Part shown: piece by piece, positions 61,880-64,000 of the stretch
Position numbering within the stretch: position 1 is the first letter of the stretch
Layout: each line of letters starts with the position of its first letter
Assembly (NCBI GenBank): GCA_050252545.1
Contig: JBFWKS010000001.1
Coordinates: 3,932 to 67,931, forward strand
DNA length: 64,000 nucleotides
Reading direction: 5' to 3'
DNA from: Solirubrobacteraceae bacterium
GTDB lineage: Bacteria > Actinomycetota > Thermoleophilia > Solirubrobacterales > Solirubrobacteraceae
The notes under the pieces: generated by a model
Database searches by the model: none
What the model was told of the DNA's origin: nothing
Seen by the model: the letters and a program-made list of their open reading frames with translations, nothing else
Translations under genes and position numbers: made by a program

Positions 61880-63421
61880 TCAGGCGGTCCGGCGCCTCCG
61901 GCCCGCCACGTAACCGACGACGGCGTCGACGACGAGGAACGCCACGAGGGTCACCCCGAGCACCGGCAGGCACCACCCGACCACCGCGGCGGCGACGATC
62001 AGGACGGCGAGGACGCGGCGGTCGACGTGGCGCCACGCCCCACGCGCGGGCATCCGGGTCCGTGGCCGTCGCGCCCACCACATCCGGTAGCCGAGCACGA
62101 TCAGCACCAGCAGCGCGATCGCGATCGACGCCAGGACGATCTGGTTGACGATCCCGAACAGGTTGCCCATGTGGGCCTGGATCCCCCACCCCGCGAGCTT
62201 CGCGACGAGCGACCAGTCGGCGAACCGCACCGCGTCGGTCACCGCCCGGCCGGTCGGGTCGAGCGCCATCGCGTCGCGCCGCATCGGCCAACGGTCACGC
62301 GCCTCGGTGACCGTGAACCCCCGGCCGTCGACGGTCGGGACCGAGATCGACATCGGGTCCCGCAGACCGTGCGCGCGCGCCGTCGCCACCGCGGTGTCGG
62401 TCACGACGAGCCGGGCCTGCTCACCCCGCAGATCGGCGTCACCATCGACCGTCGACGGACCCCCGTGGTCGTGCCCCCGTGCTCGCCGCCCCCACCGTCG
62501 GCACCGACCGCGGTCACCGTCGGCGTCGTCCACGACAGCGACGAGCGCAGCTCGCCGAACTTCGCCCCAGCATGCTGCGACCAGGTCAGCCCGGTCGCCG
62601 ACAGGCCGAGCAGCCCGACGGCGAAGATCGTGCCCACCACGGCGTGGCGGGAGAGGCGCCGCGTCCGGGCAGGACCGCCGCGGTCGGGTAGCACCAGTCG
62701 GCGCAGACGACCGGTCCGCGCCCGTCGGCGCACCCACAGCACGACACCGCCGAGCACGATCACCCACAGCCAGCTCGCCGCCGCCTCGCTGTAGTTGCGC
62801 CCGACCGCGCCCAGGTGGAGGCCGCTGTGCAGATCGGCGAACCACGTGCGCAGCGGCATCGAGCCGAACTCCGTGTCGCGGACGCCACGGACCGCTGCGG
62901 TGGCCGGTGCGACGAACACCGTGCGCTGGCGGCCCTCGGGCAGTCCGGGCACGTCGAGGACGACGCGCGTCGTTTCCCCCGGCGACGCGCGTCGTTTCCC
63001 CCGGCGACGCGGGCGTGCGGACACTGCTGATCGTGCCCTCCGGATGCGCACGTCGGGCGGCCTGGATCTGCTCGGCGATCGGGCGCGGCGACCCACCGGA
63101 CGGGGACCGCAGCTCCTGGTCGTAGACGACGCGCTCGACCTGGGGGAGGACGGTGTAGACGAGACCCGTCGTAAGCGCCACGACGAGGAACGGTGCGACG
63201 AACAGCCCCGCCAGGACGTGGAGGCGCAGGACGAGCGGACGAAGCGAAAGCCGCCGCGGCGGACCGGTCGGGTCGATGAACGGTGGGCCGCCCGGATCGG
63301 AGGGCGGCGGGTCGCCCGGGTTGACGATGGACGGAGGCGTCGGGGACGCGCTGGGGGACGACGGCACGGATGCAGCCATGAGCGACGCGGCATCGGGCCG
63401 GTCGGGCGGTACGGAAGGCAC
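61880..63421 (-). pseudogene. PepSY-associated TM helix protein with two mutually compensating frameshifts
   Basis: N-terminal LHVLAG and C-terminal AHMG in one frame; middle WFADLHSGLHLG and TM helices in another frame; 22-bp duplication 62961-63004 and G5 run 62474-62478; GAGGAG RBS before GTG 63421. Confidence 0.8.
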
Positions 63422-63770
63422 GGGGCTCCTCGAGTCGGTGATGGTGGGATCGGGGCGCTCGTGCGCGCGGCGGCCCGCGCTTGGGGAGCGGCCCTCCGAC
63501 CATTGGGGCTCGAAGATGGGACGACCGACCGGCCGGACGCCGCGGCGCCCGGACCGCTCGGGCGGCGCGCCGGGGGCGACGGCGCCGGGCCCGGTGCCAA
63601 CCCAGGATCCGGCGCTCGCCCGGGTAGAACCCGGCGAGCAGCGGTGCCGCCAACGCCAGCGCGGGCGCCAGCAGGGCGACGACCTCGCCCGAGCCGGGAA
63701 CCGCGATCGCGACGATCGCCGCGAGCAGCGCAAGGCCCGACAGGGCGAAGGCGAGCCGTCGACGGGGCAT
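62760..63770 (-). CDS. Upstream ORF with N-terminal TM helices and an RGPP motif at residues 98-101 (probable leader peptide; frame runs on without an early stop)
   Basis: MPRRRLAFALSGLALLAAIVAIAV...ALALAAPLLAGFYPGE...PLPKRGPP; RGPP codons 63479-63468. Confidence 0.55.
   Translation of the reverse strand: MPRRRLAFALSGLALLAAIVAIAVPGSGEVVALLAPALALAAPLLAGFYPGERRILGWHRARRRRPRRAARAVRAPRRPAGRSSHLRAPMVGGPLPKRGPPRARAPRSHHHRLEEPRAFRTARPARCRVAHGCIRAVVPQRVPDASVHRQPGRPAALRSGRPTVHRPDRSAAAAFASSARPAPPRPGGAVRRTVPRRGAYDGSRLHRPPPGRARRLRPGAAVPVRWVAAPDRRADPGRPTCASGGHDQQCPHARVAGGNDARRRGKRRASSSTCPDCPRAASARCSSHRPPQRSVASATRSSARCRCARGSPICTAASTWARSGATTARRRRAGCG
62961..63004. repeat. Exact 22-bp tandem duplication
   Basis: CGACGCGCGTCGTTTCCCCCGG x2, followed by a 7-bp CGACGCG microhomology (63005-63011). 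Confidence 0.95.
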
Positions 63771-63824
63771 CGGAGCGCGAGGATACTCCCGCGTACCGGC
63801 CCACCGCCCGACCGAGGAACCCCC

Positions 63825-64000
63825 ATGTCCACGTCAAGCGCCGCACCGAGGATCGACCCGGCCGACTACCTCGACATCGACCGGCTGCTCTCCGACGACG
63901 AGCGCGGCATCCGCGATGTCGTCCGCACGTTCGTCCGCGACCGCGTCCTGCCGGACATCGCGGACTGGTTCGAGGCCGGAACCGCACCGCAGGACCTCTT
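63825..64000 (+). CDS. Acyl-CoA dehydrogenase, glutaryl-CoA dehydrogenase-like (5-prime part, runs off window)
   Basis: DYLDIDRLLSDDERGIRDVVRTFVRDRVLPDIADWFEAG; GAGGA RBS. Confidence 0.75.
   Translation, partial: MSTSSAAPRIDPADYLDIDRLLSDDERGIRDVVRTFVRDRVLPDIADWFEAGTAPQDL

Follow-up and report, generated by a model that had tools for sequence, protein, structure and literature searches.

The stretch of DNA analysed here, called the window in the following, comprises 64,000 nucleotides (nt) from a Solirubrobacteraceae bacterium (assembly GCA_050252545.1, contig JBFWKS010000001.1, positions 3,932 to 67,931 of the forward strand). On its minus strand a gene for a PepSY_TM protein is preceded by a small open reading frame (ORF) that runs over 101 codons to an Arg-Gly-Pro-Pro (RGPP) motif. 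This ORF, which we suggest encodes a regulatory leader peptide of the ribosome-arrest type, is the subject of the present study.

Layout of the leader ORF and its neighbourhood

The ORF has a simple order, namely MPRRR, a hydrophobic stretch at residues ~6-24, a PGSGE turn, a second hydrophobic stretch at residues ~30-49, FYPGE (residues 48-52), a linker of 45 residues and PKRGPP (96-101), with 46 residues from Gly51 to Arg98. Kyte-Doolittle means over 17 residues reach 2.6 across the two hydrophobic stretches, and the charge pattern is positive-inside. A preliminary description of the locus, made from its letters without database searches, had read two hydrophobic segments, FYPGE, an Arg-rich linker and PKRGPP within 101 codons, and all of these were found again at the same positions. 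It had also remarked on the absence of a CxxC pair, and in fact none of the 101 residues is a Cys. The G+C content at third codon positions (GC3) of the leader frame is 0.90-0.93 over the hydrophobic part.

No stop codon follows RGPP, as had been pointed out; the next one in frame is at 62760, which makes a frame of 336 codons, and the part beyond RGPP is probably not translated normally. The His triplet said to follow the motif is present at codons 109-111 but is not kept in the only close ortholog. The PepSY_TM gene starts on the same strand 47 nt after RGPP, with GTG at 63421-63419, and its product matches Pfam PepSY_TM (PF03929) as predicted. RGPP does lie close upstream of its GAGGAG Shine-Dalgarno (SD) sequence, although 36 nt separate them, the 37 nt given earlier being an end-to-start count. 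The coordinates of all features are collected in Table 1.

Table 1. Features of the leader and PepSY_TM locus (window positions).
Feature	Position	Strand	Basis or remark
-10-like hexamer TATCCT, 9 nt before the leader ATG, no SD between	63780..63785	-	sequence
Leader ORF, codons 1-101 (ATG to second Pro of RGPP)	63468..63770	-	ATG at 63770
Hydrophobic segment 1, residues ~6-24, preceded by MPRRR	63699..63755	-	hydropathy; aligns with first transmembrane (TM) segment of the family (TM1)
Hydrophobic segment 2, residues ~30-49, holds family-invariant Pro36	63624..63683	-	hydropathy, alignment
PGE motif, residues 50-52	63615..63623	-	Gly51 invariant in 45/45 aligned members
Arg-rich linker, residues 53-97, 16 R/K, 0 D/E	63480..63614	-	composition
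Predicted anti-SD in leader, codons 85-87 CAT CTT CGA	63509..63516	-	pairs with 63434-63427 at p ~0.9-1.0
RGPP codons R98 G99 P100 P101	63468..63479	-	motif conservation
C-rich, G-poor tract, C/G ~1.5-2.4, possible Rho loading region	63270..63465	-	composition; starts right after the putative stall site
Leader frame read-through past RGPP, 235 codons, out of frame with PepSY	62760..63467	-	no stop
Shine-Dalgarno GAGGAG of PepSY_TM gene	63426..63431	-	sequence
PepSY_TM gene, GTG 63421, frame broken in this assembly	61880..63421	-	Pfam PF03929 on three pieces, two frames
Exact 22-bp tandem duplication, 2.3 copies, shifts PepSY frame	62961..63011	-	Tandem Repeats Finder

The leader belongs to a family that keeps an R-x-P-P motif

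The first relatives came from searching related genomes, translated in six frames, with the 101 residues; the weak matches that this gave were then read in frame. Thirteen relatives from the genus Patulibacter, to which the genome of the window belongs, were aligned with the window copy, and the first profile, built on these 14 sequences, found matches in 100 of 301 genomes and in 30 of the 81 genera sampled in Solirubrobacterales, often with several copies per genome. A typical member has ~105 codons and consists of two hydrophobic segments, an Arg-rich linker, LA-x-R-x-P-P, another 3-10 residues and a stop. The start codon (ATG or GTG) lies 48 codons before xPGE in most members from the genus, and the window ATG lies at exactly this distance. 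Against a hidden Markov model (HMM) of the N-terminal part of the family only, the window leader is matched with E = 1e-13.

As the motif had served as a filter for the first collection, the profile was rebuilt without the C-terminal module, by cutting the alignment four residues before the Arg, and searched against 1.84 billion cluster representatives. It matched 1316 proteins at E <= 1e-3 (clusters at 50% identity, mostly from Solirubrobacterales), including 193 at E <= 1e-10. Among the best 150 representatives, 146 carry R-x-P-P near their end (RPPP 104, RAPP 27, RGPP 14, REPP 1), and the other four are truncated, shifted or have RPPV. LA is found at positions -3/-2 of the Arg in 119 representatives, the Arg follows the invariant Gly of PGE at a distance of 43-49 residues with a mode of 45, and the tail after the motif is 1-9 residues long in 143 of the 146. 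Conservation of RGPP in homologues had been named beforehand as a test that could refute the arrest reading, and the Arg and both prolines proved essentially invariant.

An alignment of 45 sequences, to which the following counts refer, shows Pro36, Gly51 and both motif prolines to be invariant and Leu44 nearly so, and the Arg is present in 44 of the 45. The linker is conserved in length (43-48 residues from Gly to Arg) but not in sequence, the residues after the motif vary in both sequence and length, and no column of Cys, His or Met is conserved. A stop codon follows 3-10 residues after the motif in 43 of the aligned relatives. The comparison of stop positions that the preliminary description had proposed thus sets the stop-less window copy apart from most of its family, together with that of a sister species (genome G011).

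No Pfam or NCBIfam family was found for the window leader or six relatives, and in a collection of 5.8 billion proteins the members appear as 'hypothetical protein' with no Pfam domain, which bears out the earlier suspicion of an unnamed family. Because GC3 is high over the hydrophobic part and the conserved family keeps R-x-P-P almost throughout, the window ORF is real, beyond chance.

Two deviating relatives were observed. The sole aligned case lacking the Arg is a member with NAPP (L023:988-1314, minus strand), which is followed by a CopC gene, and in one database protein of 176 residues (P0083) the leader hairpin and linker are joined directly to a CopC domain, with no RxPP between, by a gene fusion or a frameshifted assembly.

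Family members precede copper-linked genes

The genes that follow family members encode DUF1775/YcnI, CopC, CopC-CopD, Caa3_CtaG-like, P19-like Iron_transport/DUF7350, MbnP and PepSY_TM proteins, all of them kinds that handle copper or are linked to it. A role in supporting heme-copper oxidases is known for PepSY_TM proteins of the CrpH type (PMC13038864). Canonical leaders, with RPPP and a stop, precede the PepSY_TM ortholog in three other Patulibacter genomes, and these canonical PepSY-linked members have a gap of 70-102 nt between their own stop and PepSY.

PepSY_TM orthologs of Nocardia and Streptomyces (L065, L066, L068, L070, L072, L073) have upstream of them membrane peptides that are longer, rich in His and Met, and finish with RGPP and a further 3-19 residues. 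Since the Patulibacter family profile does not detect these RGPP leaders, they appear analogous rather than homologous to the window leader, and on their sequences they are an independent parallel to it.

Some 18 genomes have a pair of family members on the same strand at a distance of ~2.8 kb (e.g. G204:C17:223269-226360, G195:C13:21392-24509 and G154:C28:132019-135133), and one copper locus seems, from this arrangement, to bear two successive stall leaders in them.

A leaderless signature at the start of the leader

A -10-like element right before the start codon, with no SD sequence, is the usual signature of leaderless mRNAs in Actinomycetota. The sequence TANNNT is found 6-11 nt (mostly 8-9) before the start, again with no SD, in 29 of 45 members, against an expectation of ~1.5% from base composition. 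In the window the corresponding hexamer sits in the 55-bp gap to a divergent acyl-CoA dehydrogenase-like gene. Judged by these elements, most family members, the window copy included, look leaderless or near-leaderless, and this signature supports both the start codon of the leader and its position as the first cistron. A scan with sigma-70 and terminator consensus sequences, which are unsuited to this organism, found no promoter and no intrinsic terminator at the locus, and an Rfam scan of 63250-63900 gave nothing relevant.

In several members from the genus (L002, L013, L016, L018, L022, L024, L031, L032, L033, L038) the -10-like element lies within a longer conserved string, CCGCTAnnGT, which may represent an extended promoter or an operator.

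The window copy and its sister species form a variant

In the family comparison only the window and G011 show (V)GGPxPKRGPP in place of LA-x-RPPP, the window having P-L-P-K before the Arg. They are also the only two stop-less members, with tails of 284 and 448 codons in the search with the N-terminal-only HMM. Exact matches were confined to these two genomes in a genus-wide pattern search, and metagenome scans with the leader protein and with a degenerate DNA pattern for VGGPxPKRGPP gave no matches.

Within the 11-codon VGGPxPKRGPP block three codons differ between the window and G011, two of them by synonymous third-position changes in the leader frame that would alter the amino acid in the PepSY frame. 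Right behind RGPP, indels of 7 nt and 2 nt are needed to align the two, and rare codons make up 6 of the 17 codons after RGPP compared with 9 of the first 84. The synonymous changes before RGPP and the indels and rare codons after it suggest that selection maintains the peptide as far as RGPP but no further, as would be expected if translation normally stops there. In G011 an intact PepSY gene of 515 codons lies behind the stop-less KRGPP leader, in a different frame from it, and the stop-less form is for this reason not simply a product of decay.

In a third Patulibacter genome (G010) the body of the leader before the PepSY ortholog has been replaced, with the downstream sequence kept (L029, G010:C103, ~560-720). 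The replacement is the 3′ end of a gene for a secreted protein, whose product has an N-terminal His and a C-terminal TM anchor, and what remains of the leader is a mini-ORF of 15 codons ending in TKRGPP, in another frame.

Predicted RNA structure around the PepSY start

The 181 nt from 63560 to 63380 are predicted to fold with z = -4.6 relative to dinucleotide shuffles, and in a context of 241 nt the SD bases 63431-63427 pair with 63512-63516 (p = 0.88-1.00). The leader codons that would supply the anti-SD are CAT, CTT and CGA (codons 85-87), with relative usages in the window genes of 0.04, 0.00 and 0.03, and as all three are very rare, selection presumably acts on these bases rather than on the codons. 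The preliminary description had instead proposed that GCACG (63464-63460) pairs with CGTGC (63422-63418) across the GTG start. Both strings are present and complementary, but a 5-bp pairing is not above chance and occurs in no predicted fold, whereas the SD-sequestering helix described above is a different and much stronger one.

In G011 the stretch from -16 to -4 relative to the PepSY start is predicted to pair with the RGPP codons (p ~0.95), as in the classical arrangement. The 181-nt structure predicted for the window was considered as a conserved element and rejected, as it is not conserved as such in G011. Across the family, the initiation region pairs with the stall footprint in 7 of 40 members and in 0 of 40 for a control window, figures that are approximate because the automated choice of downstream starts is unreliable and was wrong for both the window and G011.

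The PepSY_TM gene is broken in this assembly

One long PepSY frame stays open in the window, and it takes another frame for its middle ~170 codons to match the orthologs. When set against the intact PepSY of G011, the gene shows a second frame shift near 62460-62493, ~540 nt downstream of the 22-bp duplication, where the PepSY frame is restored. The break may be that of a real pseudogene or an assembly artefact; the genome is a draft of 480 contigs, and the shifts may therefore be assembly errors.

Discussion

We suggest, with a probability that we put at roughly 0.7, that these 101 codons encode a leader peptide that regulates in cis and belongs to the RxPP ribosome-arrest type. The preliminary description had arrived at an arrest leader from the window alone, and comparative evidence now supports this reading, in the form of the motif, its fixed spacing to a membrane hairpin and the copper genes, PepSY_TM among them, that follow. 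The ORF, its family, the conservation of motif and spacing, the copper-gene context, the leaderless signature and the predicted sequestration of the SD were all computed here; the stalling, the sensed signal and the direction of regulation are inferred.

Transcription would start at or within a few bases of the leader ATG, and the nascent chain would insert into the membrane as a two-helix hairpin with both ends inside (N-in/C-in). When the ribosome reaches Arg98-Gly99-Pro100-Pro101, formation of the peptide bond to Pro101 would stall, presumably with Pro100 (63473-63471) in the P site and Pro101 in the A site, an assignment made by analogy with the toeprints of ApdA, ApdP and CruR (PMC12992588). 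At this moment the PGE end of the second helix, ~46 residues back, would be just outside the exit tunnel at the membrane, and the state of the hairpin, through insertion force and/or in a copper-dependent manner, could therefore set the duration of the stall. The stall would in turn set the expression of the PepSY_TM gene 47 nt downstream, whose SD is predicted to be sequestered by leader codons 85-87 in a long-range helix, and in G011 the SD region would pair with the RGPP codons instead.

Several points weigh against this interpretation. Direct binding of copper would lack an obvious site in the peptide, as conserved Cys, His and Met residues are absent from the family. The window copy is atypical, with no LA-x before the Arg and no stop after RGPP. 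The anti-SD lies 36-43 nt upstream of the presumed P site and thus outside a single stalled ribosome; in silico, blocking one footprint leaves the SD paired, and it is freed when two are blocked, as by a queued second ribosome. The stretch of G011 equivalent to the 181-nt fold has z = -0.4, the RNA structures of the two species differ, and pairing between footprint and SD is predicted in only 7/40 members. Finally, the switch may be idle in this organism, since PepSY is frame-broken in the assembly.

The idea itself is not new, since small RAPP/RGPP membrane ORFs upstream of YcnI, PCu(A)C and PepSY genes, also in Actinomycetota, were published as a class in 2025. Fujiwara et al. (EMBO J 2025, PMC12992588) showed by mutagenesis of ApdA and ApdP that the Arg of RAPP is irreplaceable, that a Gly as the second residue gives full activity or more, and that Pro, Ser and Asp there give partial activity. 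They found RAPP/RGPP to be depleted from proteomes but, in small proteins that are secreted or lie in the membrane, enriched towards the C-terminus, and such ORFs to be over-represented upstream of genes for TonB receptors, YcnI, PCu(A)C and PepSY, including in Actinomycetota. Seven RAPP/RGPP proteins of S. lividans stalled Streptomyces and Bacillus ribosomes in vitro and in vivo, and none of the S. lividans peptides tested has a downstream gene described as PepSY (PMC12992588). The window leader resembles this class in being small, in its TM segments, in its R-[A/G]-P-P and in its place directly before a copper gene on the same strand, but differs from it in that its motif is not near the C-terminus of a small protein, 235 codons following. 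The survey covered RAPP and RGPP in annotated proteins of <300 residues with the motif near the end (PMC12992588). About 70% of the present family have RPPP, and the window copy has no nearby stop, which places both the majority of the family and the window copy outside these limits, and the family with its two TM segments and PGE is not described there.

Two further leaders of copper genes invite comparison. CruR of Bordetella pertussis, a DUF2946 protein, stalls at RAPP 45 residues after a CxxC sensor and acts via Rho, in an operon that includes a PepSY_TM gene (PMC9426467), and CutF of Rhodobacter capsulatus combines a GPPP stall with an SD-masking stem-loop (bioRxiv 10.1101/2025.02.05.636593). 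Like these, the window leader precedes a copper-linked gene and has a proline motif, with a sensor-to-stall distance of ~45 residues if counted from PGE. Unlike them, it has no CxxC or CxxxC and no signal peptide but an N-terminal membrane hairpin with no conserved Cys or His, the hosts of the family are Actinomycetota of Gram-positive type, and the mRNA is apparently leaderless. It had earlier been linked to leaders of the DUF2946 type, and this link does not hold: neither the window leader nor six relatives match Pfam DUF2946 at E <= 1 and the window leader has no Cys, so that it fits the published arrest class but not DUF2946.

With ApdA and ApcA of Actinomycetota and with ApdP the window leader shares the core motif (RAPP, RAPG or RGPP) and an N-terminal TM segment or signal sequence, and these stall with their last two codons in the P and A sites. 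They precede secDF or yidC and monitor protein localisation, whereas the window leader precedes PepSY_TM and its family copper genes; it likewise differs from substrates of the SecM, MifM and VemP type in not lying upstream of a sec or yidC gene.

The same arrest leader could have a transcriptional output, as in CruR, where a C>G bubble is combined with a RAPP stall (PMC9426467). The stalled ribosome would then shield the RNA, and after its relief, or when the leader is not translated, Rho would load on the C-rich tract and terminate transcription before or within PepSY. The C/G ratio does rise from ~1.0-1.2 to ~2 exactly after RGPP and stays high for ~200 nt, and the lack of an intrinsic terminator in our scan would also fit. 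Part of the C-richness is explained, however, by the Pro-rich N-terminus of PepSY, a ribosome released at a site with no stop codon would keep translating and keep Rho off, and the strong structure predicted for the region disfavours Rho loading, which together leave this output unlikely.

It is also conceivable, at somewhat longer odds, that the window holds a relic, that is, a former arrest leader decaying together with its PepSY gene after loss of the stop, alteration of the tunnel segment, the 22-bp duplication and a 1-base shift in PepSY near 62474-62478. PepSY reading in two frames, a leader with neither stop nor LA-x-R context, and the occurrence of the exact variant in no second genome or metagenome contig other than G011 would all agree with this. 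The same stop-less KRGPP in G011 stands before an intact PepSY, however, the differences within the motif block are synonymous, and the PepSY shifts may, as said, come from the assembly.

Less probable still is that the ORF encodes a stable small membrane protein with a copper role of its own, for example as an accessory subunit, in which RxPP would be a structural or interaction motif. The conserved hairpin with its invariant Pro36 and Gly51 and near-invariant Leu44 would suit such a protein, as would the annotation of members only as hypothetical proteins. Yet the second residue of the motif is restricted to P, A or G, which are the ones that best permit arrest, what follows the motif varies in sequence and length, and the linker is conserved in length only. 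The partner genes encode soluble as well as membrane proteins of many unrelated kinds, and in neither the window nor G011 is the reading frame kept beyond RGPP.

That the ORF is a chance open frame in DNA of 73% G+C, or an N-terminal extension of PepSY split off by a frameshift, can scarcely be entertained: accidental long ORFs are common at this G+C and GC3 of the PepSY frame is high already from ~63580, but a conserved family with fixed start, length and motif already contradicts it, the canonical members linked to PepSY end at a stop of their own, 70-102 nt before that gene, and in G011 leader and PepSY are in different frames. A programmed +1 frameshift fusing leader to PepSY was set aside as well, there being no slippery sequence and the canonical relatives having their own stop.

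Returning to the arrest leader, we raise one elaboration of it for the window and G011 that we hold to be rather doubtful, namely a collision-dependent, stop-less arrest switch. The stall at RGPP would be the effective end of translation, and the PepSY SD would be unmasked only when a second ribosome queues behind the first and covers the anti-SD at 63516-63509. Under such a scheme RGPP would be present as the strongest EF-P-refractory variant, and the sequence after it would be free to drift, by indels that are not multiples of three and by rare codons.

The kind of switch proposed here was described between 2022 and 2025, its principle is already published, and what is unusual in this copy is only the stop-less RGPP form and the anti-SD made of rare codons. 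The family, on the other hand, is readily defined, and with it the recently recognised proline-stall leaders of copper genes gain a large group of sequences. Searches for RAPP and RGPP overlook most of its members, since these use RPPP, and leader genes of ~105 codons are now annotated as 'hypothetical protein' or not called at all. The stop-less RGPP variant may be regarded as a natural experiment on the events that follow an arrest, and so simple a peptide, with a hairpin, a charged spacer of fixed length, a stall motif and no Cys or His, would make a good model for the sensing of copper or of the state of the membrane.

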